From a virus (lineage: Duplodnaviria > Heunggongvirae > Uroviricota > Caudoviricetes), in the IMG/VR virus record IMGVR_UViG_2541047124_000005, positions 1 through 10,475 of that record: a stretch of DNA of 10,475 nucleotides, one strand, 5' to 3'. The notes below the pieces were generated by a model. The model did not search any database and had not been told where the DNA came from. It saw nothing but the letters and a program-made list of their open reading frames with translations. The position numbers and the translations under genes are program-made. Shown piece by piece: positions 1 through 10,475 of the stretch (positions within the stretch are counted from its first letter, which is position 1; the number at the start of each line of letters is the position of its first letter).

Positions 1-82
1 CATAAGCATCACCCTTGCCGTTGTAAACCCACAGAGTGGTACCGGCACCTTTTACCGGCTCAAGGGGATTTGGTGTTGCCAT
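1..82 (-). CDS. V: major tail protein V, N-terminal 27 codons only (gene continues past the left edge of the window)
   Basis: Minus-strand translation from ATG at 82..80 gives [27 protein letters not shown], which closely matches the lambda gpV N-terminus as I recall it ([27 protein letters not shown]). It sits 7 nt downstream of the gpU-like stop, consistent with lambda order Z-U-V. Absent from the ORF track because it is truncated by the window edge. Confidence 0.75.
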
Positions 83-89
83 ATCGTCC

Positions 90-488
90 TCACATCTCGT
101 AGGTAATTTTCCACAGGAGATCTGCCGATCCCCACATCATAAACTCATCATCCCGGCGGTAGTCATACCCCTGAAGATTCATCTTCAGCAGTAATGCACT
201 GAGCCCGGGAACTGCCTCCAGCGCAGGAAGAATTTTTTCTTCCATCCACATATCCAGTGCCGAGTCCGGTTCTTTTGCCCTGAGAAAAACCTCAATATGC
301 AGTGTCGCCTCCCAGGTTCCCTCATCAACGAACTCGTCAGCAGCAGACGCATCTGTCAGGTAAACAGCAACAGCAGGCAGTTCCTGTTCATCAATAAAAA
401 CCGGGCGACCGTCAAACCAGCTCACCCTCTCAGAAATATTTTCTTTCAGGGCAGACAGAACTGCCGCCCGTATTTCACGGTGTTTCAT
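90..488 (-). CDS. U: tail terminator protein (lambda gpU family)
   Basis: 132-aa [20 protein letters not shown]...[26 protein letters not shown] aligns along its length with lambda gpU as recalled (MKHTELRAAVLDALEKH...GYDYRRDD...ITYEM). A GGGAGG Shine-Dalgarno lies 4-5 nt upstream of the ATG at 488. Position between Z and V homologs is as expected. Confidence 0.9.
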
Positions 489-500
489 ACACCCTCCCAG

Positions 501-1130
501 TCATTTTCTTTTCAGCACCAGGCGTAACTGATGCGTCATGGCTTTCATCATCTGCGCCGGTAATTTTTCCCGGTACATCCGGTCCCGTTCACGTTCAAAG
601 GTTTCTGCCAGCGGTCCGGCAGTCGTAATCTTCACCACTTCGATCGGCAGACGGTGGCGTTTCGGCCTCCCTTTGCTGTCCGCGCCGGTGGATGATGATG
701 CCCACGGCATACGCTGCATCACATGCCAGCGTCCGTTAGCCAGCCGGGTGATAAAGGCGTCCGGGATCCGTCTTTTCCCCACAATCAGCACACTGCCGCC
801 CCCTTTCAGGGCCGCACGCTGTCCTTTCTTTCTCCGTTTTCTGCGGGAAAGTCGAACGCGGGCCTCCCCCAGTTTGATGGCGGGCAGGTTGCCGGTATTG
901 ATGTAAACCTTTGCGTAAACCTTATCCGGTCGTGCCGGACTTAACCGGATGCGGGCACGGATAAGACGACGGGGAACGGCCAGCTCCCTGGCAACTGAAG
1001 AGGCCGTTTTCGCAATAATGGCCCCCGCCACTCGGTTCAGTGTCATGGCAGAGGCCCGGGGAACGGCACGGCGATCAATTGCATCCAGATTTTTCATGGC
1101 CTGCGCCAGACCTTTTATTGCCATACTCAT
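501..1130 (-). CDS. Z: tail completion protein (lambda gpZ family); true start is probably the third codon (ATG at 1124)
   Basis: ORF MSMAIKGLAQAMKNLD...LSRRKRRKKGQRAALKGGGSVLIVGKRRIPDAFITRLANGRWHVMQR... matches lambda gpZ as recalled (MAIKGLEQAV...LSRRRRRKKGQRSSLKGGGSVLVVGNRRIPGAFIQQLKNGRWHVMQR). The first ATG overlaps the upstream stop (ATGA); the ATG at 1124 has AGGAA at better spacing and matches the lambda start MAIKG. Confidence 0.9.
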   Translation of the reverse strand: MSMAIKGLAQAMKNLDAIDRRAVPRASAMTLNRVAGAIIAKTASSVARELAVPRRLIRARIRLSPARPDKVYAKVYINTGNLPAIKLGEARVRLSRRKRRKKGQRAALKGGGSVLIVGKRRIPDAFITRLANGRWHVMQRMPWASSSTGADSKGRPKRHRLPIEVVKITTAGPLAETFERERDRMYREKLPAQMMKAMTHQLRLVLKRK

Positions 1131-1408
1131 TCCTGTTCGACAAAAATCCGGGGTTTACCGTTGTACGTGTCATAACGGGTCACCGTCAGTGTGCGCCCCG
1201 CAAACACAACAACATCATGACGGGCCGGACGGTACCGGGCTGAAAACACCACCAGTGACAACTGGCTGCCCGAAAGCGCCCCCATCTCCGCGGACTCTTC
1301 CTCCGGCATCACGTCGTACACGACGCCGTTAATCTCCGCCTGTTTGCCCATCACCCGAACGGTCGCCACGTCCATCCGGCAACACATTCGCGTAAACAGA
1401 TCAGACAT
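1127..1408 (-). CDS. head-tail joining protein, FII-like (putative)
   Basis: 93-aa ORF in the position lambda gpFII occupies (just upstream of Z). Weak but consistent pattern similarity to lambda gpFII as recalled (DLF near the N-terminus, a GV-F/Y-D-PEE block, and an SL-VF block). Overlaps the upstream gene by 8 nt (ATGTCTGA), typical of translational coupling. Confidence 0.55.
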   Translation of the reverse strand: MSDLFTRMCCRMDVATVRVMGKQAEINGVVYDVMPEEESAEMGALSGSQLSLVVFSARYRPARHDVVVFAGRTLTVTRYDTYNGKPRIFVEQE

Positions 1409-1727
1409 TGATTTTTACCGCCACAGTGGCGCTGTTTGCAGGGGCATTTTCCCAGGCTACCCCCGCTGCCACCGCACCGTCTGCAGCCAGCTGCACAACC
1501 CCGTCCTTCAGATAAACCACCGCGCCGGACTGAATGTCGTCAGCAGACTGTTTGGGCAGCAGGAACACGCCTTCGGCAAAACCGTCACCGGCCTCACCGG
1601 CAGGAATATCGGTAATGGCCACGGCCACCATACTGCCGACCACCACCGCAGCACCGCTCAGGATGGTCTGATCTCCGGCATTCACCAGTTCAATGGTGGT
1701 ACCGTCCTGTACAAAATTTTTCGCCAT
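1401..1727 (-). CDS. small Ala/Gly/Val-rich head protein, DUF2190-like (putative capsid decoration or cement protein)
   Basis: 108-aa ORF MAKNFVQDGTTIELVNAGDQTILSGAAVVVGSMVAVAITDIPAGEAGDG... lies directly downstream of the major capsid gene. Its composition and MAKN-type N-terminus resemble the small DUF2190-family proteins that follow capsid genes in many lambdoid prophages, as I recall them. GGAG lies about 10 nt upstream of the ATG. Confidence 0.5.
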   Translation of the reverse strand: MAKNFVQDGTTIELVNAGDQTILSGAAVVVGSMVAVAITDIPAGEAGDGFAEGVFLLPKQSADDIQSGAVVYLKDGVVQLAADGAVAAGVAWENAPANSATVAVKINV

Positions 1728-1768
1728 AATGCTGTTTCTCCGGACAGCCCCTGTGGGGCTGTTTTTCA

Positions 1769-1792
1769 GGCATAAAAAAAGCCCTTTCGGGC
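1769..1792 (-). terminator. candidate intrinsic terminator immediately downstream of the capsid gene
   Basis: On the minus strand: GCCC-GAAA-GGGC (4-bp GC stem with GAAA tetraloop, plus 1781..1792) followed directly by a U7 tract (plus A7 at 1774..1780). Located 23 nt after the capsid stop at 1815. Short stem, so probably a partial terminator. Confidence 0.4.
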
Positions 1793-1814
1793 AGTGATTG
1801 TGATAACGCGGTTA

Positions 1815-3770
1815 TCAGGCCACCGACGAACGCACCAGCCCGCGCCAGTCAAGTGGTGCCACTCCGGCATCAATACGGATTTTTGTGGCAATGCCGTCAG
1901 TGGTGAAACCTTCCTGCTGATCAATGTATGGCGTGTCCACACCATCCAGCCAGGCCACTTCAATGGTGTCAGTGCCCTGTGCCGCCGCCAGATACCAGGT
2001 TTTCGGGTCTGCCGCATCAAGACGCGCTTCTGCAATCACCTCAGCAAAGTTCTGGATAGGGTTAATGACACCGGCGTTTGCATCCGCCCCTTTCACACTG
2101 GCCGATTTGATGGTCTGGTTCGCCACCGTCTCCAGTGCCACCGGTACCAGCATAAAGGCCGGACGGATATTCAGGGCACGATCGCCTTCTTTCTGCAGGC
2201 GCATCATCTGACGGGCCGCATCCAGTCCGGAAACGGAGATCCCCCCGGTGGCAATATTTTTGTGATCGGCATGGAACAGCGCCTTACCGTCGGACAGTTT
2301 CGGGTTATCCGTCAGCACCTTGTAGACCAGGTCACCAATCGTTGCCTTCGCCGCACGCCCCATCTTCATCGGCACGTCCACCAGCATATTCAGATCATCA
2401 TTGATAATGGCCTGGCGGGTGATGGAGAAAATCTCCCCGTAAGTGGCCAGTGCAATGGTCTCCTTGCGATCTGAGGTGGTGATGTATTTATACTCCGCCC
2501 CCTCACGAACCTGGCGCAGAGAACCAAAACCGCCCATCCCCACGCGATACGCTGTTTTGAAGTCTGACAGGCGTCCCTTACGGGTCCACTTCTGGAAGGT
2601 TTCTTCTGATTCCTCCCAGCCCTGGATCAGCCCCTTGTTCGACACATCCAGCAGAATATTGCCAAAATCAGAGGTGCTGTGCGTCAGCGCCAGCCCGACC
2701 ATCTGCATGGGGTTATAACTGGCCACCCCAATACCGCGCTCCGTCAGTGACATGCGAGCCCATTCACGCAGGGTCATCCCGTTATAGGCGTTATCCTTCT
2801 CGACATTTTCAAATCCGGCACGGGCCAGCATCGCCTGGCGGATCCCGTCCCCCACAAAATTGCCGTTTCCGGCATAAATATGGGCCGGTGTATTTTTGTT
2901 GGTCGGCGAGGACTCCTTGCCCATTTCATTCAGCAGTCGTTCACGGGCCATTTCCAGCGAACAGTCAGGATCAGCCACGCACTGTGCCTGAAGCGTCTGA
3001 TAGCGACCGCCGAACATGGCAAACAGATCGTTAATGCCTGACATGCGGGCTTTCTGTTCTGCCATAACGCGGGCGCGAATGGTCGCCTCATCAGACACTG
3101 CCGGTACCGGTGATGGTTCTGTTACCGCCGGTGCAGGGATTGTCACTGTGGTATCACGCGGGGCACTGTTGCGTGGCGGAGTAATCATGTTTCGGATGGA
3201 TTCCGGCATCTTTTTAAATTCCTCTGTACGTTTTGACTGAATACATGCCATTGCCTCAACGGCGGGTGTCACCTGGTCAGCAAATCCGTGTGCCAGACAT
3301 TCGGCACCGGACATCCAGGTCTCATCCGCCAGCATGGCAGCAATTTCATCGGTGGTTTTCCCGGTTTTCTGTGCATAAGCGGGTAACAGAACCGCCTCAA
3401 CTTTATCGAGCAGGTCGGCATAGGTGCGCATGTCCTCCGCATCACCGCCCGTAAAGCCAAATGGTTTATGAATCATCATGAAGGAGTTTTCCGGCATAAT
3501 GACCGGTTTTCCCACCATCGCAATGACCGACGCCATTGACGCCGCCACACCGTCGACATAAACGGTAATGGACGCACCATGTGTTTTCAGTGCATTAAAA
3601 ATGGCGATGCCTTCAAAGACATCGCCACCCGGTGAATTGATATTGAGATTAATGTGGGTGATATCGCCCAGTGCATTCAGATCACTGATAAACTGCTTCG
3701 CTGTAACACCCCAGAAACCAATCTCGTCATAAATATAAATATCCGCGTCACTCTGGTGACCAGCCTGCAT
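1815..3770 (-). CDS. prohead protease (ClpP/S14-like) fused to major capsid protein
   Basis: One long ORF. The N-terminal region carries a ClpP-like serine protease fold, including a GVAASMAS block (ClpP-type active-site Ser context) and a downstream MIHKP His. A Pro/Ala-rich linker follows (PAPAVTEPSPVPAV), then a roughly 400-aa C-terminal region typical of phage major head proteins. The track ORF begins at 4031, but I place the start at ATG 3770..3768 (MQAGHQSDADIYIYDEIG...), 13 nt after the portal stop, because the upstream 87 codons overlap the portal gene. Confidence 0.85.
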   Translation of the reverse strand: MQAGHQSDADIYIYDEIGFWGVTAKQFISDLNALGDITHINLNINSPGGDVFEGIAIFNALKTHGASITVYVDGVAASMASVIAMVGKPVIMPENSFMMIHKPFGFTGGDAEDMRTYADLLDKVEAVLLPAYAQKTGKTTDEIAAMLADETWMSGAECLAHGFADQVTPAVEAMACIQSKRTEEFKKMPESIRNMITPPRNSAPRDTTVTIPAPAVTEPSPVPAVSDEATIRARVMAEQKARMSGINDLFAMFGGRYQTLQAQCVADPDCSLEMARERLLNEMGKESSPTNKNTPAHIYAGNGNFVGDGIRQAMLARAGFENVEKDNAYNGMTLREWARMSLTERGIGVASYNPMQMVGLALTHSTSDFGNILLDVSNKGLIQGWEESEETFQKWTRKGRLSDFKTAYRVGMGGFGSLRQVREGAEYKYITTSDRKETIALATYGEIFSITRQAIINDDLNMLVDVPMKMGRAAKATIGDLVYKVLTDNPKLSDGKALFHADHKNIATGGISVSGLDAARQMMRLQKEGDRALNIRPAFMLVPVALETVANQTIKSASVKGADANAGVINPIQNFAEVIAEARLDAADPKTWYLAAAQGTDTIEVAWLDGVDTPYIDQQEGFTTDGIATKIRIDAGVAPLDWRGLVRSSVA

Positions 3771-3783
3771 CCTGAACCAGGAA

Positions 3784-5293
3784 TTATTCTTCGGACTGGT
3801 CGTCGGTGTGCTGCGGCTCCTGTCGTTTCGTTGCGGCACTGCTGCCTCCTTTATCACTGGCCGGATCGGTATCAAATACCAGATCCAGCTTGCGGTTTTC
3901 ATCAATTTCGGCCTTGCGCCGACGTTTGACATCATCCGGATTACGACCACCTGCACGTACCCAGTCTGATTCTGTCGCTGCTCCACCACGAATCTGAATT
4001 TTCCAGGCCTCAGCCTCCTTAACAGGGTCAATCCACGGCATCACCGGTCCGGAATACACCGCGGTATACAGTGAAGAACGGTCAAGATCGCGGGGTAGCC
4101 TGATAACACCGGATGCCACAGCCTGTTTCAGCCAGGCACGATACATCGGGCGGGTGACGGCACCAATAAACCAGTCCTGCAGGATCAGGTAGCCATCAGT
4201 GGATTCAACCAGCTCCTGACGCTGGGCGCTGTAAGTGCCGTTATAGTTGCGCGCTGTACTGGAAAAAATTCAGACGACTGCCCGCCGCCACGGCACGCAA
4301 CTGACCATTACGAAAAGTTTCAAGGTTAGGATTGGGGCGATCCGACTTCACCATTCCGATTTCTTCGCCGGGTTTCAGATCGTCGTAAATAATGCCTGGC
4401 TGAATGGTAAGCTCGCGTTCCTTATCCTTGCTGCCATTACCATCCGGTTCATAGCTCTGCCCATCGCCTTTCCGGATGTACATCCCCAGAGCAGCGGCGA
4501 TCCTTGCTGCAGTCAGCTCAGAATCCTCATACTCTTTCAGGGCACTGAGGCGGATCAGCACACCGGACAACAAAGACGTCCCGCGCATCTGGTGCAGACG
4601 GCGAACAAATTTAAGATGCAGCATTCGCTCTGCATCCACTTCTTTGGTTTCCATCTGCCGTCCGGATACGGGACGGCTTTTATACACCAGATATTTTTCG
4701 GGACGCCCCCAGTCATCAACAAACACGCCCTGATTCAGCCTGTTGCTCTCATCACTGGTCATGGGAATAAAGTCTGGCTCGAGCGCCTCCAGCCAGAAAT
4801 GAACACCGGCAGAAGGCGTCAGGCTGTTTATGCGCCCGGAAACCATCTGGGCAAACACCTCACCATCGCGCAGCCAGGTACGCAGCATCAGACGTTCCAG
4901 CATCGGACGGGTAAACTGCCCGGTGACTTCCGGACTGACAGACCATTCACTCCATCGGGTGCGTATCTCCGCTGCCAGATCACGGGCAATGGCCCCATTG
5001 CGTAATACCGGATGTGGCTCGACAATAATCCCGTTTTTCCCCACCACCCGTTCTTCCAGCTTGTCAAATACACCAATAACCAGATCGTGGTTGTTATCAA
5101 GGTAACGGGCCTGCTCACGTAACGACACGGCCCCGTACTGGCTTAACTGGTCGGCAGTTCGGTTTTCCCGCCGGGCTTTGTGTGTCCGCGTCGTTTTTAC
5201 GGCCTCATAAGCCTGGATCACCGCACGGGAACGCAGCCTTGCCGCTTTCCATCCTGGTGAAAAAACGCCAATCACATCATCAAGAATTGCCAT
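3784..5293 (-). pseudogene. portal protein (lambda gpB family), reading frame interrupted by an apparent +1 insertion in a homopolymer run (A6 on plus strand at 4263..4268); genuine inactivation versus sequencing error cannot be decided from sequence
   Basis: Two consecutive track ORFs (4241..5365, 374 aa, and 3784..4146, 120 aa) are in different frames. The upstream frame ends ...AVAAGSRLNFFQYSAQL*. Deleting one T from the T6 run on the gene strand gives ...RLNFSSTARNYNGTYSAQRQELVES... and runs continuously into the downstream ORF, giving a protein of about 502 aa. The restored junction resembles the corresponding lambda gpB segment as I recall it (...SYEQLSRNYAQMSYSTARAS...). Start placed at ATG 5293..5291 (MAILDDVIG...), overlapping the gpW stop as TGATG. 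Confidence 0.8.
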
Positions 5294-5505
5294 CAGAACC
5301 TCGCCAGCCGGTACCCGGGATGCCCCCGTCGTCGTGTAATCAGAGCCGCAAGGCGGCGCTCCCACTCCTGCCGTCCCTGCCGGATCTCAGATAAGTTTTC
5401 CATGGTCATCTGCTGACCATTAAAGGTGACGGATTTTCCGTCCAGCACCGCCATTTCAGCTTCCGTATAACGCTGAATCATGGCTTCGATATCATTCTGG
5501 TTCAT
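5293..5505 (-). CDS. W: head-tail joining / head completion protein (lambda gpW family)
   Basis: Small ORF between terL and portal, as in lambda (A-W-B). The C-terminus ...ITRRRGHPGYRLARF resembles the lambda gpW C-terminus as recalled (...QRRRGPAGFYV). Start chosen at the third codon (ATG 5505..5503, protein MNQNDIEAM...) because GGAGG lies 6 nt upstream of it; the track start at 5511 abuts the SD. Confidence 0.7.
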   Translation of the reverse strand: MNQNDIEAMIQRYTEAEMAVLDGKSVTFNGQQMTMENLSEIRQGRQEWERRLAALITRRRGHPGYRLARF

Positions 5506-7604
5506 AACCATCCTCCGGAAGTCAGCCAGGGGTTAACATCGTCAGTTACTGTTTTCTTCCGTTTTTGTTTTTTAACAGGCGTGGATACCGGTTCCGGTGA
5601 GGGTGACGGTTCGGTACTGTCCGGGACACTCTCCAGCCAGGTTTCCCGGCTCGCCCACCCCGGTGCATCCGGCCAGCGGATCTTTTCGTATCCATGCAGA
5701 ATGACCAGAGCCTCGGCATACACCATCAGGTCAAAAGCTTCGTTGGCACCGCGACCCGGCTTACTCCATTTCCCGTCACTACTCCGCTCTTCATACGTCA
5801 GTTCGTCGTAAAACCAGCTCCCCAGCCAGTCAGGGAAATGCACATAGCCGGGACCTGGAGAGTCACGCCATAACGCGTTATTCACCCGGTCTTTCAGTGC
5901 ATCCGTCTGAAGAAGCCAGAGCGGCACATCACCTGCGGCCTGCGCCCGTCGGCCCGTTCGTCCGGTGTTATCAGGGAATGTACGGGTGATCAGTTTTGCG
6001 CGCCGGATGCTGTCGCCCTTAAACAGGTAAATACGTTTACCAAGGCCATCACGACGGCAACGACGCCAGAATTTATAGGCATTATCAGTGACCCCGTCTT
6101 CACCGCCGGAGTCCACCGCCATTGCCATCAGTCGCATTTGTTGAGAAGGATCGGAGGCCAGCGGCCAGCTTTTATGAAAAACATCCGTCAGCAGGACATC
6201 CCAGTCTTCCGGATAGCTGGCCGGATCAATTCGCTGGCTCTCACCGTCGCTGTCACCGCGCAATGACTGCGTGATGTTGTAACGATCAATAATCCAGCGT
6301 TCGCCACGGCTGCCATAGCCCGTTACCTGAACCACAAAACGGCGATGACGTCCCGCCTGCACATCCACTGTCGCCACAAGGAAATTAACGCCATCCGGCA
6401 CACTGCTGGAAGGAACTGGCTCTGCCCGCTGCTCAAGCAGTTCACTTTTTCGTTGCTCCATGCTGGCGCGGGGAAGATAAGGTAATCCCCAGTCGGTATT
6501 GATAACCGTCTTGAGTGTTTCTTCACTTCCGGTTGTCTCGTATTCCTGTTCTGCAGTAAGCAGTTTGTAAACGAGTTGCGAGAGTGTCTGGTAAGCAGCT
6601 GCCGGACCCTCCATCCAGAATGACGCAATACGTGAGCGTCGGGGATCACCATAACGACTACCATCCGCATTGATGGATTCACCATCCCGCAACCAGACCC
6701 CACGTCCGTTCAGCTCACGTTTTTGTTCAGGCATAATCCGTCCTGAACAGGAAGGACACTGAATATAAGCCGCCTCACTTGCCAGCACGGGATCGGCAAT
6801 ATCACGGAAACCAGCAACCACATCGCCGCAGGGCTGAAAATACTCACCACAGTGTGGACAGGGCCAGTACCAGCGACGGCGATCGCCACGGTTATAGAGC
6901 GACAGTATCCCCGTGGTTGGTGGAGCCTCATGCGGTGAAGTCCGTCGCCATTTCACATCCTTCACATCCCTGCCGGGGGAACTCTCCACCAGCGTCATAC
7001 CACTGGACATAAATGTGGTGGTACGTTTTGAGGCAAGAGAGAAGGCATCCCCCTCGCCATCAATATCTTCCGGAAAACGGTCATAATCCGTCAGCGCCAC
7101 GCATTTATAATCTGATGAGGACATGATATTGACTGACGGCCAGCCGATTTTCAGGTAGTTGCCAGCAAGGAATGTTCTGTCATAAACGTTGTTGTCATTT
7201 TTGTTCGGACTCAGGCGACTGACCACTTCCGGGCTGACGCGAAACGTTCTGGCGAGTCGTTTTTTGGAGTGTTCGCGGGCTTTTTCCTCCGTCATCTGAA
7301 TGATCAGCATATCCGCAGGATCGCAAATCACGTTGTAAATCACCCAGCCGTCAATCAGGCCGATAGTCTTGCCGGTTCGTGCCGGGCCAACAAATATCAC
7401 TGCGTCGTATTCACGCGAGGCCAGGCAGTTCATCGGCTCAATAACATACGGTGCCACCAGCGGATCCCACGGGACTGAGTTCCCGGCCCCCATGGGCACC
7501 CGCATATACTGAGCAACGGCATCAGCAACCCGCATTCGTCTCGGTGCGCGAAGGATATAACCTGAATCGGTTCGTGCTGCCTTTGCGGTTTCCTGATTCA
7601 GCAT
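5502..7604 (-). CDS. A: terminase large subunit (lambda gpA family)
   Basis: 700-aa ORF with a Walker A motif VGPARTGKT (about nt 7365..7388) and a CPHCGE motif matching the ACPHCGE block of lambda gpA. Further blocks resemble gpA as recalled (...WIIDRYNI... versus SWLIDRQII; AFDLMVYAEAL versus ALDCFVYALAAL). The start ATG overlaps the terS stop (TAATG) and is preceded by GGAGGAG. Confidence 0.95.
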   Translation of the reverse strand: MLNQETAKAARTDSGYILRAPRRMRVADAVAQYMRVPMGAGNSVPWDPLVAPYVIEPMNCLASREYDAVIFVGPARTGKTIGLIDGWVIYNVICDPADMLIIQMTEEKAREHSKKRLARTFRVSPEVVSRLSPNKNDNNVYDRTFLAGNYLKIGWPSVNIMSSSDYKCVALTDYDRFPEDIDGEGDAFSLASKRTTTFMSSGMTLVESSPGRDVKDVKWRRTSPHEAPPTTGILSLYNRGDRRRWYWPCPHCGEYFQPCGDVVAGFRDIADPVLASEAAYIQCPSCSGRIMPEQKRELNGRGVWLRDGESINADGSRYGDPRRSRIASFWMEGPAAAYQTLSQLVYKLLTAEQEYETTGSEETLKTVINTDWGLPYLPRASMEQRKSELLEQRAEPVPSSSVPDGVNFLVATVDVQAGRHRRFVVQVTGYGSRGERWIIDRYNITQSLRGDSDGESQRIDPASYPEDWDVLLTDVFHKSWPLASDPSQQMRLMAMAVDSGGEDGVTDNAYKFWRRCRRDGLGKRIYLFKGDSIRRAKLITRTFPDNTGRTGRRAQAAGDVPLWLLQTDALKDRVNNALWRDSPGPGYVHFPDWLGSWFYDELTYEERSSDGKWSKPGRGANEAFDLMVYAEALVILHGYEKIRWPDAPGWASRETWLESVPDSTEPSPSPEPVSTPVKKQKRKKTVTDDVNPWLTSGGWL

Positions 7605-8095
7605 TACTCCTCCTGCTGTAATTCCTCCTCATCATCCGCACCTGCTTCGGTCACCCGCAGGGCTATCTGATCGCGCAGATCATCAATAATGGACTGAACA
7701 CGGCTCACAGCGGCAGGCTGCAGACCACAGTCACGTTCCAGAATATCCGGTAATGTCTCCAGCACCTGCACGACCGCTTTTGCCCAGATGGCAAACTCCC
7801 GTCTGACATCACTGGCCGGAATGAGTTGTGCCGTTTCCTGTTCGAACTTAAGACGCTCACGTTCAGACTGATACCAGGCTTTGCGTTCATGTGGATCCAT
7901 TTCGCCCTCAGCAACCGGCGGTGGTAACCCCATAAATTCAGTCAGAATATCGGTCAACCGGTATAGCTTGAGTTTGTCATGTCCACCAGCGGGACGAATG
8001 TTTTTCAGTCTTGCCACGACAGTCTGGCGGTGCAGACCAGATAAAGCCGCCAGTTGATTAATATTCAGCACCAGGTTTTTCAACTCATGATCCAT
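7604..8095 (-). CDS. terminase small subunit (Nu1-like, N-terminal HTH DNA-binding domain)
   Basis: 163-aa ORF immediately upstream of, and overlapping, terL. N-terminal LNINQLAALSGLHRQTVVARLKN is a helix-turn-helix-like segment as in Nu1-type small terminases; the C-terminus is acidic (DDEEELQQEE). GGAGG lies 4-5 nt upstream of the ATG at 8095. The candidate cos site lies about 180-200 bp upstream, the same spacing as in lambda. Confidence 0.8.
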   Translation of the reverse strand: MDHELKNLVLNINQLAALSGLHRQTVVARLKNIRPAGGHDKLKLYRLTDILTEFMGLPPPVAEGEMDPHERKAWYQSERERLKFEQETAQLIPASDVRREFAIWAKAVVQVLETLPDILERDCGLQPAAVSRVQSIIDDLRDQIALRVTEAGADDEEELQQEE

Positions 8096-8104
8096 ATTTC
8101 CTCC

Positions 8105-8300
8105 GGAGAGCTTTAAACATGCATCGTGCGAACAACTTTAAGAAAACGCGTTCGATGTCGAACAAAAAACACTCAATTCGACATACAAAAAACAAATAAC
8201 CATTAATAATCAATAAGATGCAAAGATGATGGTGGCCGATAAAAATGCAAAAACTAGCCTTTTTCCGCGACGCTCCCGCCCCGTGGCAGGCCACCCCACC
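8105..8300 (-). other. candidate cos site: cosN-like GC-rich core (plus 8265..8286) plus AT-rich cosB-like region with TCGA-containing repeats (plus 8110..8200)
   Basis: On the gene strand the sequence reads ...CCTCCCGGTGGGGTGGCCTGCCACG GGGCGGGAGCGT CGCGGAAAAAGG..., which parallels the lambda cos junction as I recall it (...TTTCCGGTGATCCGACAGGTTACG GGGCGGCGACCT CGCGGGTTTTCGC...). The 12-mer GGGCGGGAGCGT (plus 8270..8281) differs from the lambda cohesive end at 4 positions. Between it and terS lies an AT-rich stretch with A-tracts and repeated TTCGA/TCGAAC motifs (8126..8136, 8150..8163, 8177..8193), including the palindrome GTTCGA-TG-TCGAAC, plausibly terS-binding R elements. Confidence 0.45.
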
Positions 8301-8703
8301 GGGAGGAGCCGTCAGCCTGAAAGCCATGACGAACGTCTGATACAGCCCTTGCATGAATGGCATCGGGATAATCCAGAAAGGAATAGCATCGACCCACAAG
8401 AATCTGTGTGAGTGTCCTGTTTCTTCCACCCCCGCACAGGACTGGCGAGCATGAGGGACAAACCCGCGAATCATTAGCGCGGTAAAAACCCGGTGTGCAT
8501 CGTTTTTGATTATTCCCGCACACTCGCGCAGAAGGAGTTCCCCGTCGGGCTACGGTCATGGTTAATGCGGGAATACAGCGACGATACAGCGCATGATGTG
8601 TCAGGCTTGAATACCTTTATCCGTTAAAAGGGATATCAGTTAAGTTATCCCGTGTAGGGTATAAGCCATTATCAAGCCCACCAGTAGATGGGCTTTGTAA
8701 TGG

Positions 8704-8961
8704 CTACTTCGCTTTTGCTTCCGCTCGCTTACGCCGGCGCTCTTCTTTCCTCTCGGCTTTTGCCATGTCCATGAATGCCTGCATGATCGAGTTCCGCATC
8801 ATGTAGCTAACAAAGTGATGATTGACACAGCCGTTGAGGCGCAGCTGCTCGCCAAACTCATCCACCGAGGCCAATGCTTCCATCATACCCTTCTCGCCTT
8901 TCATGAACTCTGAGAAGTCGCGCCCCGCTCTGGAGGCGCATTCAATGACACGATCACTCAT
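8704..8961 (-). CDS. hypothetical small protein (85 aa), or frameshifted C-terminal part of the upstream KilA-N-like gene
   Basis: ORF MSDRVIECASRAGRDFSEFMKGEKGMM...AKAERKEERRRKRAEAKAK with a highly charged Lys/Arg/Glu-rich C-terminus. Its ATG (8961..8959) overlaps the stop of the upstream ORF as ATGA. No family recognised with confidence. Confidence 0.4.
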   Translation of the reverse strand: MSDRVIECASRAGRDFSEFMKGEKGMMEALASVDEFGEQLRLNGCVNHHFVSYMMRNSIMQAFMDMAKAERKEERRRKRAEAKAK

Positions 8962-9455
8962 CCCGGAAGCCCGGGGATCGAAATCTGCAACTGGTTAGCC
9001 AGGGAGTTAATTTCAGCGATCAAACCAGGTTTCGTGTAGCGCCATGCCGCGAGGCCTTGTCCACAGAAGCTCGCCATGTCTTTTTTCTGATCAAACTCAT
9101 GACATTTCATGTTGAGCTGCGCACTTAAGCTGTTCCGATGATGAAGCTCTCCGGTGAAGTAATCATCGAGGACTTTATAGGCTGCATATTTAAATCCGGG
9201 GTTTAGCCATGCTGCGTAATCATAAGCAACGAACTTTCCGCCATAAGTTCCACCGTGCGCACCGCGTTCCGTAAAAACCACAGATTCGTGGTTTTTCTCC
9301 AGCTCAGCCAAGAACTCTTTGGTCTGCTTGTTTCGCAGGTAGTGGTACGGAGATTCAGATTCACTTTTACCACTGGCTTTCCACATATCAGTGAGGCAGA
9401 TCATGCCATCTTCACCGATACGGATTGGTTGATTGAAGAGGGTTAATGATTTCAT
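8958..9455 (-). CDS. KilA-N domain-like protein (accessory gene between the lysis cassette and cos)
   Basis: 165-aa ORF MKSLTLFNQPIRIGEDGMICLTDMWKASGKSESESPYHYLRNKQTKEFLAELEK...GGTYGGKFVAYDYAAWLNPGF... The pattern (segment ending in G-x-I/Y, then L-T/N-D-hydrophobic-x-K-A-x-GK, then W/YLR-x-x-x-T-x-EF, then a G-T-W/Y-hydrophobic...A-x-W-x-x-P-x-F block) matches my recollection of the KilA-N/APSES-type domain. AGG lies 8 nt upstream of the ATG. Confidence 0.5.
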   Translation of the reverse strand: MKSLTLFNQPIRIGEDGMICLTDMWKASGKSESESPYHYLRNKQTKEFLAELEKNHESVVFTERGAHGGTYGGKFVAYDYAAWLNPGFKYAAYKVLDDYFTGELHHRNSLSAQLNMKCHEFDQKKDMASFCGQGLAAWRYTKPGLIAEINSLANQLQISIPGLPG

Positions 9456-9570
9456 AGCGTGTACCTACTCTTTGAAATGAACCTTTGCCGCACAGGAAAC
9501 CAGCCCACCGAGGCTCGCCAGCACTAACTGGTATCCTCAAAGGCCCATTCCAAAGGGGCAGGTTCGGTGT

Positions 9571-9597
9571 AAAAAACATGCGTTGCGGTACGCATTT
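9571..9597 (-). terminator. candidate intrinsic terminator (second of two tandem terminators downstream of Rz)
   Basis: Minus-strand RNA: AUGCGU-ACCGCA-ACGCAU (6-bp stem from plus 9578..9583 and 9590..9595, 6-nt loop) followed by G and a U6 tract (plus A6 at 9571..9576). Confidence 0.4.
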
Positions 9598-9600
9598 ATT

Positions 9601-9625
9601 GCAAAAAGCCCCGCATCGCGAGGCT
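9601..9625 (-). terminator. candidate intrinsic terminator (first of two, about 33 nt downstream of the Rz stop)
   Basis: Minus-strand RNA: AGCCUCGC-GAU-GCGGGGCU (8-bp stem including one G-U pair, 3-nt loop) followed by UUUUUGC (plus aaaaa at 9603..9607). Confidence 0.5.
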
Positions 9626-9657
9626 CATTAAATGGACTTTGTGATTTGCAAAAAAAA

Positions 9658-10095
9658 TTATTTCAGGCATTGCGTCCTGATGTACTCCTGCAGGTAGTTA
9701 ACCTGCGCGGTTATCTTGTCGATTCCACCTCGGAGACGGTAATAATTGAGTTCAGCATCTGCTGTAAGTCCTGGGCTTTCTCCATCGCCCATGCTGCTGG
9801 CTCCGGTCGTTGACTTTGCACAGGTGGCGGAGACTTGCAGGCGCTTACGCCCAGCAGAAACATCAGCACGGAGACTTTCGATAGTCGCATTAGCATCAGC
9901 AAGCTCCTTTGTGTATCTGGCGTCAAGTTCTGCTACATCACGTTGCCGCTTCTGCATATCAGCGATGATGGATGTGGCTTTATCGCGCTGCTCTTTGTAG
10001 GCGATGGCGTTATCACGGTAATGATTAACAGCCCATGACAGGCAGGCGATAATGCAGATAACCAGAGCGGAGATAATAACGGTTACCCTGCTCAT
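9658..10095 (-). CDS. Rz: i-spanin Rz (inner-membrane spanin subunit)
   Basis: Translation from ATG 10095..10093 gives [39 protein letters not shown]..., near-identical at the N-terminus to lambda Rz as recalled ([39 protein letters not shown]...). N-terminal TM segment followed by a charged coiled-coil-like region. The track start at 10107 is a GTG with no room for an SD; the ATG at 10095 is preceded by GGGGG at 5 nt and overlaps the endolysin stop (ATGA). Confidence 0.9.
9711..9896 (-). CDS. Rz1: o-spanin Rz1 (outer-membrane lipoprotein), entirely embedded in the +1 frame of Rz
   Basis: Track ORF 9711..9926 lies wholly within Rz in another frame. From the internal Met at 9896 the product is [20 protein letters not shown]|[16 protein letters not shown]...: short basic n-region, hydrophobic core, lipobox-like VSAC, then a Pro-rich mature region as in lambda Rz1. 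Exact start (9896, 9890 or 9926) is uncertain. Confidence 0.7.
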
Positions 10096-10475
10096 TGTTG
10101 CCCCCACAAACAGACTTCACGCTCAATCTCGCGGCGAGTCATCAGCCCTTTCCATTGCTTACCGCCAGCGTATGTCCAGCGCCGTAGCTGATCACATGCG
10201 CCTTTGATATCGCCCTGGTTTATTTTGCGAAGAAGCGTCGATGTTCTGAAATTGCCAGCGCCCACGTTGTAAACGAACGAGTAAAGAGCGCCGCGCGTTG
10301 TTTCCGGTATATCGACGTTGATGTACGGGTTAATTTGTCTGGCGACCGTGGCAAGGTCTTTATTCAGGAGGGCTTTGCATTCTGCTTCGGTATACGTTTT
10401 ACCGGGAATGATGTCTTTTCCGGTGTGTCCGTGACATACAGTCCATACGCCAACGATATCTTTGTATGGTATGTA
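10092..10475 (-). CDS. endolysin, phage lysozyme type (GH24, T4 lysozyme / P21 R family); C-terminal 127 codons only, 5' end beyond the right edge of the window
   Basis: Minus-strand translation from the window edge is open for 127 codons to TGA at 10094..10092: [127 protein letters not shown]. The G[11 protein letters not shown] block and overall layout match the phage lysozyme family (compare P22 gp19 TIGVGHTGK). Not in the ORF track because no start codon lies within the window. Confidence 0.85.

Follow-up and report, generated by a model that had tools for sequence, protein, structure and literature searches.

A conserved, covarying multi-hairpin element at the lysis-packaging junction of lambdoid phages: a candidate cis-acting RNA structure

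The window analysed here is a stretch of 10,475 nucleotides from a Caudoviricetes virus (IMG/VR record IMGVR_UViG_2541047124_000005, positions 1 to 10,475), in which a KilA-N/ORF11CD3 gene, a small 85-aa ORF, a presumed cohesive-end site and the terminase genes lie side by side (Table 1). A sequence-only reading had pointed to four inverted repeats in the interval of about 400 bp between the 85-aa ORF and the candidate cosN, and all four were verified at exactly the positions claimed. The 17-nt dyad that contains the rightmost one overlaps the 85-aa ORF at its stop codon (8704-8706, minus strand). Of 1000 dinucleotide-preserving shuffles of positions 8300-8703, 1.1% contained a perfect inverted repeat with arms of 10 bp or more and a spacer of 3-60 nt, and 7% contained three or more repeats of 7 bp or longer; on composition alone, the 10-bp repeat is just mildly unusual, and it is the comparative evidence that decisively supports the dyads. 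Judged by alignment with related phages, the four dyads split into two mosaic modules, A and B.

Table 1. Features of the window in and around the structured interval (positions in the window).
Feature	Position	Strand	Description
Terminase large subunit	5502-7604		700 aa
Terminase small subunit	7604-8095	minus	DUF1441, phrog_141
Presumed cosN	~8270-8282	minus	reverse complement GGGCGGGAGCGT; aligned with lambda and phage 434 right ends
cosQ-like site	8304-8310	minus	AGGAGCC; aligns with annotated cosQ of 434; ~23-29 nt from presumed nick
Module A	8412-8593	minus	whole element (H1, GGG/CCC clamp with H2, H3); strand of the covariance model, favoured by E. coli variants
H1	8414-8442		7-bp stem GTCCTGT 8414-8420 / ACAGGAC 8436-8442 (I23), 7/7 complementary; 15-nt loop
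Linker domain	8455-8495		H2 and predicted GGG/CCC clamp, then conserved AACCCGGTGTG
H2	8464-8482		small hairpin, CCGCG 8464-8468 / CGCGG 8478-8482; sequence differs among types
H3	8496-8588		irregular 93-nt hairpin, four helices P3a-P3d
P3a	8496-8503 / 8581-8588		TGCATCGT / ACGATACA, 8 bp
P3b	8511-8520 / 8566-8575		10-bp repeat (I9), middle helix of H3; TATTCCCGCA / TGCGGGAATA, 10/10 complementary, spacer 45 nt
P3c	8527-8531 / 8550-8554		CGCAG / CTACG, 5 bp
P3d	8540-8542 / 8547-8549		apical, CCC / GGG
Module B	8594-8705		right-hand hairpins
B1	8617-8664	minus	core GGGATA 8630-8635 / TATCCC 8646-8651 within longer imperfect dyad 8617-8635 / 8646-8664 (I3)
B2	8664-8705		strong hairpin; core AAGCCCA 8674-8680 / TGGGCTT 8689-8695 within 17-nt dyad 8664-8680 / 8689-8705 (I2)
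85-aa ORF	8704-8961	minus	Pfam/PHROG
KilA-N/ORF11CD3 protein	8958-9455	minus	Pfam and PHROG matches

The cosN/cosQ region (8270-8310) is outside Module A; it was compared with what we take to be the lambda cos sequence, and the genome record of mEp460_4F5 ends at window position 8287. The view that the dyads are not cosQ proved right, as the cosQ-like heptamer adjoins the lambda-like cosN. Lambda cosQ shares with Module A a place upstream of cosN, near the right end of virion DNA; however, it is a 7-bp GGGTCCT-like site some 20-30 bp from the nick, specific to a lambda-type terminase, whereas the dyads lie 131-420 bp away.

A covariance model of Module A (R1) matches the minus strand, that is, the late sense, at 8412-8593 with 215.9 bits (E 2e-57) and finds a sole copy in the window, and nhmmer places the element at 8413-8593. 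The loop columns of H1 are invariant and include TTCTTCC (GGAAGAA on the late-sense strand). In the linker domain, RNAalifold predicts a GGG/CCC clamp enclosing H2, with arms at about 8455-8457 and 8490-8492 (converted from alignment columns); H2 is missing in the lambda type, and alignments read by eye place CAGC/GCTG at its position in S107, TCTC/GAGA in Min27 and CTGT/ACAG in 434. Since the H2 stems of different types misalign column by column, they were left out of the covariation counts and are described per type. The architecture of H3 was predicted independently in the window, lambda, S107 and Stx2_707 versions, in agreement with RNAalifold: P3a, P3b and P3c stack as an interrupted helix that is kept across types, with the 8-bp and 10-bp helices flanking an asymmetric internal loop and the 5-bp helix above, and in Stx2_707 P3d is deleted, leaving a plain loop closed by P3c. 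Invariant loop sequences on the late-sense strand comprise, besides GGAAGAA in H1, GAGUGU, AUAAU and AUUAAC in H3, and a CU-rich CUCCUUCU is found near the H3 tip on the same strand. In RNA folding, proposed earlier as a check, the single-sequence energy of the window version is unexceptional (z -1.0 for the whole element, -2.4 for H3). Pairing between the H1 loop and the H3 tip was considered and set aside, being possible in some types but unconserved.

Sequence comparison identifies Module A as a conserved, non-coding multi-hairpin element that is widespread in lambdoid phages. In lambda, its homologue lies at 46868-47034, between bor and lambdap78, where it fills about 58% of a 289-bp spacer without any annotated feature; further copies are present in K-12 DLP12, Stx phages and Salmonella phages. 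Matches were obtained in 559 phage records and in 4633 of 5426 complete E. coli genomes (~85%), with up to 11 copies in each. At all of the about 140 loci examined, the element has a constant orientation and sits between lysis and packaging genes, with terminases of four types. Its neighbours in other phages are bor, ybcV, ylcI, hyp50 or Rz, and in Sakai prophage Sp3 the 85-aa/KilA-N cassette is replaced by a 50-aa gene. The tie of the 10-bp repeat and the GTCCTGT hairpin to KilA-N is thus refuted, these being parts of an independent element with several neighbouring cassettes.

Covariance and conservation analysis across related phages, which had been suggested as a check on the dyads, supported those of H1 and H3, which are conserved and show compensatory changes. 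The pairing statistics cover 24 distinct variant types and 785 pair-cells, of which 96.1% hold standard pairs on the minus strand; with the partners shifted by 1-3 columns, 29-57% do. Both sides differ in ten pairs, a number equalled in 1 of 500 shuffles, and the covariation score was equalled in 0 of 500, although these controls treat the variants as independent and overstate that independence, because the variants stem from about 8-10 lineages of mosaic phages. Run unguided, RNAalifold recovered P3a, P3b, P3d and H1 at -35.3 kcal/mol. Changes on both sides affect five of the seven H1 pairs, and at one pair the sequences divide about evenly between T-A and G-C. The Salmonella type, 71% identical to the window over Module A, differs on both sides at five of the seven H1 pairs and at three P3b pairs, with pairing intact. 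Altogether, four of the ten P3b pairs change on both sides (C-G to G-C in lambda, the three pairs of the Salmonella type, and C-G to T-A in variant L009), and pattern searches requiring a change in one arm of P3b retrieved loci in which the partner arm had changed too. These patterns show that the H1 and H3 stems, including the 10-bp repeat, are kept by natural selection. A recombination scar, as also proposed, does not fit stems kept by compensatory substitutions between lineages just 71% identical.

Moreover, the description of the interval as non-coding and structured holds, given the covarying stems, the lack of Pfam matches for its ORFs and the 1-nt indels. A protein-coding gene was ruled out: close variants of Module A are separated by frame-breaking 1-nt indels, there is no conserved start codon, the start codon of a 101-aa ORF that crosses cosN is missing in the commonest variant, the ATG is lost in the Ayreon type, and a Pfam scan of every ORF in the interval gave no match. 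The PHROG matches of these ORFs are partial and point to families of unknown function or to mis-named ones, most likely built from spurious ORF calls. Searches of Rfam 15 returned no match at the gathering score in the whole window, a sole match at E up to 10 in 8050-9000 (a eukaryotic lncRNA model, 24.8 bits against a cut-off of 50), and nothing at E up to 1 when the Min27, Sp10, S107 and lambda versions were searched.

Several known kinds of element were considered for Module A. An intrinsic terminator has a G+C-rich stem, a short loop and a U-tract that starts 0-2 nt later; H1 and H3 were rejected as such, since they have no U-tract on either strand and large loops (15 nt in H1, a branched or irregular one in H3); the flanks read GCGCAUGAUG (plus) and CACACCGGG (minus), and the nearest U-run starts 8 nt past the stem. 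A terminator scan of 8400-8700 on both strands reported no site, a promoter scan of the same positions found nothing, and no conserved promoter stands beside Module A, whose flanks vary among contexts. An integron attC site is an imperfect palindrome with RYYYAAC ... GTTRRRY ends, located 3' of cassettes and with an integron integrase nearby; by inspection, the sole GTT motif, GTTAATG (~8561-8567), misfits GTTRRRY and lies inside the hairpin instead of at its end, and no integron integrase was found among the neighbouring genes. The sole resemblance to attC is seen in contigs that carry two Module A copies around one ORF. Inspection gave no convincing IHF or CRP site in the element. CsrA-type GGA motifs were discarded, the lambda type having no GGA in the purine-rich tract of H3; the GGA of the H1 loop (late sense) is invariant. 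Literature on the Module A sequence, ybcV/borD sRNAs, lambdoid RNA motifs and RNase III sites in late transcripts yielded nothing on the element.

Module B is a separate module of terminator-like 3' structures. Positions 8595-8720 fold on the minus strand with a z-score of -4.96. On the late-sense strand B1, common to HK022, Sf6, Stx phage 1717 and the Ayreon type, is a hairpin followed by UUUUAA and looks like a weak terminator; it stays below terminator-scan thresholds, with a 10-nt loop (8630-8651) and the tail UUUUAACG. B2 directly adjoins the 85-aa stop codon and, with ATCAA and TTTGTAATGG as its flanks, has the layout of a bidirectional terminator; it, too, stays below the thresholds (8674-8695 is followed by TTGTAATG, four T in eight). 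In relatives, the flanks of B2 are kept and the stems are swapped, as in AAAGCCACTC/GAGTGGCTTT and GAGACCA/TGGTCTC, and its homologue in Ayreon and Sp3, GAGTGGCTTTTGT, is a canonical terminator, annotated as such in phage Ayreon. In the relatives examined, the gene directly upstream of the Module B hairpins is either the 85-aa gene or an unrelated 50-aa one; stretch 8617-8705 directly follows the 85-aa gene in Stx phage 1717, HK022 and S107 as it does in the window, and is matched in Sf6 and others. The proposal that the KilA-N transcript ends in a structured RNA fits these two right-hand hairpins only. According to Juhala et al. (2000), as cited in PMC4104026, intrinsic terminators bound 'morons' in lambdoid late operons. 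The 8617-8705 stretch is like these terminators in its position directly 3' of a cassette gene, its kept flanks and swapped stems, and its A-rich and T-rich tracts, whereas H1 and H3 differ from them in having no U-tract and large loops.

The strand on which Module A would be functional was assessed from its variants. Standard pairing is found in 96.1% of pair-cells on the minus strand versus 91.2% on the plus strand, and consensus folding of 51 unique sequences gave -34.3 kcal/mol for minus versus -12.6 for plus. Pair-cells that read as G-U on the late-sense strand alone number 130, versus 23 on the opposite strand alone; counted as pair positions, such states are 13 versus 8-9. In window-type sequences every cell pairs on the minus strand and 2-3 fail to pair on the plus strand, while the lambda and K-12 types have four in the late sense versus two in the opposite one, and Salmonella types have one or two T-G pairs, equal to A-C on the late-sense strand. 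Lambda H3 folds at -36.9 kcal/mol (z -4.6) in the bor sense and at -33.1 kcal/mol (z -2.8) in the late sense. Hence, E. coli variants favour a late-sense RNA, and those of lambda and Salmonella show a slight preference for the other sense.

We tentatively prefer the reading of Module A as a cis-acting RNA structure in the late transcript, serving as a processing or stability signal. As a folded RNA, the element would act in cis on any transcript running through it, most likely the Q-antiterminated late transcript, which corresponds to the window minus strand. There, H3 may be a nuclease-processing or stability signal, either an RNase III-type cleavage site or a block to 3' exonucleases, by which the lysis-gene part of the late mRNA would be uncoupled from the packaging-gene part. 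Furthermore, the invariant loops (GGAAGAA; GAGUGU, AUAAU, AUUAAC) suggest that a protein or an RNA reads the element.

In an RNase III signal, a nearly continuous helix extends over about two turns and is often cleaved at an internal loop; well-established examples are the T7 R1.1-type and lambda sib hairpins. H3 resembles these in being an irregular hairpin of the ~60-100 nt class between genes of a long phage transcript, with two helices of about one turn each and an asymmetric internal loop, at which mRNA stability could be uncoupled. However, no sequence relationship was found, P3a and P3b add up to an interrupted 18 bp, cleavage is only predicted by analogy, and H1, with its invariant 15-nt loop, has no counterpart in the T7 and sib signals. 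The ERIC/IRU and REP repeats, which may modulate mRNA decay, are comparable with H3 as imperfect palindromes of about 100 nt in transcribed intergenic regions, but they are scattered in either orientation, whereas Module A has a fixed position and orientation in phage genomes; no similarity to the ERIC consensus was recognised.

A functional RNA of the opposite sense (plus; that of bor, ybcV and ylcI) is a less probable reading. The element would then be an intercistronic structure, a 3' UTR or a segment of an sRNA, and would stabilise or insulate the transcripts of lysogen-expressed accessory genes that adjoin it in many phages. This reading agrees with the slightly better plus-sense pairing of the lambda, K-12 and Salmonella variants, with plus-sense stop codons within ~20 nt upstream of H1 in three unrelated contexts (ybcV/lambdap78, a ylcI-like gene in 434, hyp52 in 1717), and with hairpin 8664-8705 as a plausible plus-sense terminator ~75 nt past H3. 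Conversely, the window, Sp3 and Ayreon-type variants pair perfectly only on the late-sense strand and have no plus-sense gene or promoter upstream, where only cos and the terminase genes are found.

In this context, Tree et al. (2014; PMC4104026, Table S2) listed EcOnc10, EcOnc11 and EcOnc12 as orphan Hfq-binding peaks in the O157 strain Sakai. They map in Sp12, Sp10 and Sp9 to the same intergenic region, on the strand opposite the late genes and next to H1; this abundant Hfq-bound RNA ends just upstream of H1. The published coordinates derive from an older Sakai record and were corrected by about +140 bp. Module A was rejected as the source of these Hfq-dependent sRNAs, as the corrected peaks fall in the 3' UTR/terminator of a YlcI-like gene. 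In all three prophages, a strong intrinsic terminator ends opposite-sense transcription 8 nt before H1, and on the other side of the element the Rz stop codon lies 11 nt before the start of H3. The EcOnc RNA thus stops at its own terminator 8 nt before Module A, which argues that little plus-sense transcription enters there. The window has neither the YlcI-like gene nor its terminator, and no Hfq peak occurs on the Sp3 copy of Module A (NC_002695.2, 903300-903481). The sRNAs AgvB, AsxR and Pas were also discarded, since they are located near pR' and the holin gene and not at Module A.

Two further contexts weigh against the opposite sense. One is the plasmid gene iss, which is expressed: the copy in front of it is truncated, without H1 and H2, and is decaying, its H3 containing an inserted base and six non-Watson-Crick pairs. 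Such decay would be expected of a constraint tied to the lytic cycle of the phage. In addition, Salmonella arizonae, Salmonella diarizonae and Photobacterium have no Module A upstream of their bor genes.

That Module A acts as DNA, either as a protein site or as a structure-prone linker for the exchange of cassettes between the lysis and packaging modules, we regard as unlikely. The idea of a module junction was itself borne out, as mosaic breakpoints cluster at 8413/8414, 8486 and 8593/8594, at the edges and inside the element; besides, some contigs carry two diverged copies bracketing one late-sense ORF, as unequal exchange would yield, G-T-compatible states occur on both strands, and the loop sequences are invariant. 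In this sense, the element may be a structure-specific junction that mediates lysis/packaging cassette exchange. Nevertheless, homologous exchange needs identity alone and involves no selection for compensatory stem changes, and duplex DNA does not readily extrude imperfect palindromes whose centres span 45 and 15 nt. No known protein-binding motif was recognised in Module A, and no DNA-binding or recombinase gene is present in every context, KilA-N, Rha and Ant being nearby in some phages.

Somewhat more doubtful is an undescribed class of phage structured RNA, in which a stable hairpin RNA of ~100-180 nt would be cut from the late or the opposite-sense transcript and its invariant single-stranded motifs would act in trans on a factor of the host or the phage; GGAAGAA and the CU-rich tract near the H3 tip would then target, for example, ribosome-binding sites or an RNA-binding protein.

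It is improbable that Module A is a functionless relic, for instance of old terminators, persisting by descent and by hitch-hiking at the junction. In the stretch of HK022 that was examined, module B occurs alone, and truncated copies of Module A are found elsewhere; the element is therefore dispensable. Recombination breakpoints lie within H3, and much of the apparent conservation reflects recent common ancestry, because most E. coli copies are 80-99% identical. A relic is contradicted by pairing that survives multiple double substitutions between lineages 71-84% identical, by the collapse of the slid-partner controls, by unpaired loop motifs that are invariant in all types, and by the visibly greater degradation of the iss copy, the sole one outside a phage context.

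Finally, packaging signals (cosQ or another cos subsite) or a small protein encoded in the interval are highly improbable: the distance from Module A to the presumed right cohesive end is 131 bp in the window, that to the genome end of Salmonella phage SPN3UB is ~95 bp, and gene callers place ORFs there ('hypothetical protein', phrog_17397, phrog_6954, the Ayreon 'late gene regulator'), but the element is 1.5 kb from cos in lambda, adjoins four unrelated terminase systems and is separate from the cosQ-like heptamer, and the indels, the lack of a conserved start codon and of Pfam matches, and a 101-aa ORF spanning cosN speak against coding.

Lambda is the best-studied temperate phage, yet its bor-lambdap78 spacer holds this covarying, unannotated element. 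If Module A controls how the late transcript is processed or how stable it is, it matters for the balance between lysis-gene and virion-gene expression in lambdoid and Stx phages, and if its RNA acted in trans, lambda itself would encode an overlooked regulatory RNA. In practice, a covariance model for Module A would clean prophage annotation, as spurious ORFs are repeatedly called there, and the element is a handy marker of the lysis-packaging junction in lambdoid prophages. If the opposite sense is active, it bears on lysogenic-conversion genes such as bor. What we take to be the AT-rich bor promoter, with a PhoP-box-like TGTTTAGGGTTTGTTTA, is downstream of Module A, and this sequence is absent from the window; a link with bor expression was rejected, as the bor promoter is missing from the window and Module A is missing upstream of several bor genes. 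The search of genome contigs with the Bor protein retrieved mostly lambda DNA contaminating unrelated assemblies.

All four dyads described in the sequence-only reading are present where it placed them, distributed over what the phage-genome searches show is a patchwork of two separable parts: module A (8412-8593), which carries the 10-bp repeat and GTCCTGT/ACAGGAC and is an entity separate from module B (8594-8705), which carries the other two. Taken alone, the 10-bp repeat is only mildly unusual: when 8300-8703 was shuffled 1000 times with dinucleotides preserved, 1.1% of the shuffles held a perfect repeat of 10 bp or more whose spacer was 3-60 nt. The window is a lambdoid prophage with its late genes on the minus strand (late-sense), 94% identical across 1710-8704 to prophage Sp3 of Escherichia coli O157:H7 Sakai, where a 50-aa gene with its own terminator (L207 3472-3686) takes the place of the KilA-N/85-aa cassette (8704-9455).

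Features of the window, in late-transcription order, and the corrected EcOnc11 site
Feature	Position	Strand	Remark
KilA-N/ORF11CD3 protein	8958-9455	-	first in late order
85-aa protein	8704-8961	-	function unassigned; second in late order
Gene-free stretch	between 85-aa gene and cosN		~420 bp; third in late order
AAGCCCA/TGGGCTT	8674-8680 / 8689-8695		inside longer imperfect dyad 8664-8705
GGGATA/TATCCC	8630-8635 / 8646-8651		inside longer imperfect dyad 8617-8664
H3	8496-8588		93-nt irregular hairpin, four helices
P3a			TGCATCGT/ACGATACA, 8 bp
P3b	8511-8520 / 8566-8575		perfect 10-bp repeat, arms 45 nt apart
P3c			CGCAG/CTACG, 5 bp
P3d			CCC/GGG, apical in H3
H2	8464-8482		small hairpin between H1 and H3, sequence type-specific
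H1	8414-8420 / 8436-8442		GTCCTGT/ACAGGAC hairpin, 15-nt loop
cosQ-like AGGAGCC	8304-8310		before cosN
Lambda-like cosN	~8270-8282	-	after cosQ-like motif
Direct repeats, presumed cosB region	8161-8177 / 8191-8207; 8215-8224 / 8242-8251; 8099-8116 / 8124-8141
Dyad ATGTCGAA/TTCGACAT	8155-8184		8 bp, within presumed cosB region
Terminase small subunit	7604-8095	-	after cosN
Terminase large subunit	5502-7604	-	after small subunit
Corrected EcOnc11 site	L208 ~2147-2208		Sakai Sp10; equivalent place in Sp9, Sp12

Module A is non-coding and structured, its structure is under selection, and the conservation, folding and covariance analyses that the sequence-only reading had proposed were run on it. 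It is widely kept across related phages and prophages, with matches in 559 phage records and in 4633 of 5426 complete E. coli genomes (median two copies, maximum 11). Copies occur in lambda (46868-47034, an unannotated spacer from bor, 46459-46752, to lambdap78, 47042-47575), phage 434, mEp460 and Ayreon, Stx phages of the 933W-like, BP-4795-like and 1717-like kinds, S107 and SPN3UB from Salmonella, K-12's cryptic prophage DLP12 (in its ybcV-bor spacer) and, in truncated form, large E. coli plasmids, where it lies upstream of iss. Literature searches found no description of it, the lambda, phage 434 and RefSeq E. coli annotations hold no feature for it, and Rfam gave no match; its unannotated presence in lambda and most E. 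coli genomes makes it of moderate interest.

In phage comparisons, homology starts at 8413/8414 or 8486 and ends at 8593/8594 regardless of the flanking DNA, and the orientation is identical throughout the ~140 loci fetched. One flank holds the lysis genes, separated from module A by bor or iss, by KilA-N plus the 85-aa gene, by the 50-aa gene, or by no gene at all; the other holds a terminase system of one of four unrelated kinds, in some cases accompanied by ybcV (DUF1398), ylcI (DUF3950) and ybcW on the opposite strand. Position and orientation are fixed at the lysis-packaging junction, independently of any single neighbour. Module A lies 1.5 kb from cos in lambda versus 131 bp in the window; in Min27 it is ~115 bp upstream of terS, and in Sakai Sp10 it lies 11 nt past the stop codon of Rz. 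Some phages can dispense with it; HK022 carries module B only, within the stretch examined, and the DNA upstream of bor lacks it in Salmonella arizonae, Salmonella diarizonae and Photobacterium. A separate search of genome contigs with lambda Bor returned proteins 97-100% identical to lambda's in more than 30 assemblies of unrelated organisms (L130-L171; Pseudomonas, Kitasatospora, Cohnella, Flavobacterium, Shewanella and various MAGs among them), with lambda-type module A wherever the upstream flank was long enough; these contigs are most likely contaminating lambda control DNA.

Folding placed the 8511-8575 repeat as P3b within the predicted H3, whose architecture came out the same in separate predictions for the versions from the window, lambda, S107 and Stx2_707; H2 is a hairpin by eye in each type, its columns not aligning between types. 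On alignment A2 (24 distinct variant types), unguided RNAalifold recovered P3a, P3b, P3d and H1 at a consensus energy of -35.3 kcal/mol, with 10 pairs changed on both sides. The five-helix structure gave standard pairs in 96.1% of 785 cells, versus 29-57% when partners were slid by 1-3 columns. Only 1 of 500 shuffles matched the 10 both-side changes and none of 500 reached the covariation score of 0.202 (shuffle mean 0.115), in a control that ignores the relatedness of the variants, which represent perhaps 8-10 lineages of recombining phages and were retrieved by exact anchors placed in conserved loops. Stronger arguments for selected stems come from the slid-partner control and from how deeply the Salmonella type has diverged.

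Compensatory changes were found in the H1 and H3 stems. P3b reads CGGA/TCCG in lambda versus CGCA/TGCG in the window, and ATCATTGCA/TGCGATGAT in the Salmonella type (three pairs changed on both sides); at one H1 pair, 23 sequences have T-A and 24 have G-C. The Salmonella module A is only 71% identical to the window's, and its H1 (TCTCGAT/ATCGAGA) has five of seven pairs changed on both sides with all seven paired. Two pattern scans that required a change in one P3b arm and left the partner free returned Salmonella-type loci in which the partner had changed too, the sole exception being a contig of E. coli type whose two copies include one with a P3b mismatch. Loop motifs are invariant in all types (plus strand: TTCTTCC in H1; ACACTC, ATTAT and GTTAAT in H3).

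The most likely role, which we propose tentatively, is that module A works in cis, as RNA, on the late transcript antiterminated by Q, where H3 may mark off the lysis-gene part of the late mRNA from the packaging-gene part, because its build is like that of phage RNase III processing hairpins or exonuclease barriers. T7-type and lambda sib-type RNase III hairpins are comparable to module A in build and placement, as are ERIC/REP-type intergenic palindromes; the features of an intrinsic terminator (looked for in H1 and H3), cosQ, an Hfq-bound sRNA, a coding gene, an integron attC site or an Rfam family were not found in it, and we class it as a cis-acting intergenic structured element.

The late-sense strand is favoured as the functional one, not settled. 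Across 51 unique sequences the consensus fold reached -34.3 kcal/mol late-sense versus -12.6 on the opposite strand, with 130 versus 23 G-U-only pair-cells and standard pairing of 96.1% versus 91.2%; the window, Ayreon and L024 types left no unpaired cells late-sense versus 2-4 on the opposite strand. The call is not firm, since G-U-only states counted as pair positions, nearer to independent events, number 13 versus 8-9, pairing in the lambda, K-12 and Salmonella types is slightly better on the opposite strand, and lambda's own H3 is stablest in the bor sense. An opposite-sense RNA serving ybcV, ylcI or bor, which the last two observations would favour, seems rather unlikely.

Tree et al. 2014 (PMC4104026, Table S2) reported abundant Hfq-bound orphan RNAs in Sakai Sp12, Sp10 and Sp9, namely EcOnc10, EcOnc11 and EcOnc12, whose three peaks are equally strong. 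At its published coordinates EcOnc11 falls on the 5' half of H3, an overlap rejected as an artefact of an older Sakai record shifted by ~140 bp near 1.9-2.2 Mb, because the AgvB1 sequence lies ~140 bp further along in the current record than published, and the EcOnc10 and EcOnc11 positions relative to the YlcI-like stop codon agree only if the shifts total 275 bp (~137 bp each). Once corrected (+140 bp), the three peaks fall on the 3' UTR and terminator of an opposite-strand YlcI/YnfO-family (DUF3950) gene, module A itself lying outside them, and the Sp3 copy has no Hfq-binding peak. That terminator (CTGCTGTG...CACGGCAG then T7) ends 8 nt short of H1; therefore, opposite-sense transcription in Sp9, Sp10 and Sp12 is largely stopped just ahead of module A, and little would enter it. 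EcOnc10/11/12 may be a 3'-UTR-derived sRNA.

A role at the DNA level, as a protein site or exchange linker, is unlikely. Three contigs (L009, L199, L017) carry two diverged copies; in L009 (5058-6186) these lie ~950 bp apart around one ~200-aa late-sense ORF, with Rz and a 103-aa ORF upstream, which looks like cassette gain by exchange at module A. The 85-aa gene is 98.8% identical to its homologue in Salmonella phage S107, whereas the adjoining module A is only 71% identical, a difference that shows very recent cassette exchange across genera.

That module A is a functionless relic appears quite improbable beside its selected stems. Its only copy in a non-phage context, on the iss plasmids, shows visible decay: H1 and H2 are gone, and H3 has six non-Watson-Crick pairs and one inserted base.

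A cos subsite or a small protein can be set aside as highly improbable. The dyads had been judged too far away for cosQ, correctly so, because a lambda-like cosN and a separate cosQ-like AGGAGCC were mapped and the nearest dyad is 131 bp from the right cohesive end. The region 8270-8310 is a lambda-like cos whose reverse complement reads ACGGGGCGGGAGCGTCGCGG, against ACGGGGCGGCGACCTCGCGG in lambda; the AGGAGCC lines up with the cosQ annotated in phage 434, and window 8287 is where the mEp460_4F5 genome record stops. The presumed cosB region (8099-8251, from cosN to the terminase small-subunit start) contains direct repeats at 25-30 bp spacing, which, like its dyad, may be terminase or IHF binding sites; a terminator scan marked as terminator-like a stem at 8149-8164 (minus strand) that overlaps this dyad and is a different one.

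The absence of a convincing ORF also held up, given frame-breaking indels, a lost ATG and zero Pfam matches for any ORF in the interval. Close variants differ by single-base indels (GCAGAAGGAG vs GCAG-AGGAG; T5 vs T4; H1-loop deletions), a -1/+1 indel pair marks the lambda type, and the 101-aa ORF (8254-8559, minus strand) extends across cosN and lacks its ATG in the commonest (Ayreon) type. PHROG matches were partial and to function-unassigned or doubtfully named families, most likely built from spurious calls on conserved module A DNA; phrog_17397 and phrog_6954, which partly match the 101-aa ORF, appear to include such calls. ORFs that gene callers repeatedly place over module A, in the window and at homologous loci, are named 'hypothetical protein', 'putative late gene regulator' (Ayreon) or 'Rz-like spanin'.

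In the window, HK022, Stx phage 1717 and S107, module B follows the 3' end of the 85-aa gene closely, and in Ayreon and Sp3 it lies 3' of the 50-aa gene; Sf6 and HK620-like phages match the same stretch. Among relatives, the 8664-8705 hairpin keeps its flanks (CCATTATCAA ... TTTGTAATGG) and swaps its stem (AAGCCCA/TGGGCTT, AAAGCCACTC/GAGTGGCTTT or GAGACCA/TGGTCTC), and its Ayreon homologue is an annotated terminator. UUUUAA follows the 8630-8651 hairpin on the late-sense strand, the 8595-8720 fold is much stabler than shuffles (z -4.96), and both hairpins fell below the thresholds of a simple terminator scan. We read module B as ordinary terminator-like 3' structures at the cassette boundary. 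The loop of its 8664-8705 hairpin (8677-8684) reads late-sense ACTGGTGG, a 7/8 match to Chi (GCTGGTGG), which RecBCD entering from the right cos end would, on our reading of lambda conventions, meet in active orientation; the likeness is probably chance, since most relatives have CCCACCCGT there.
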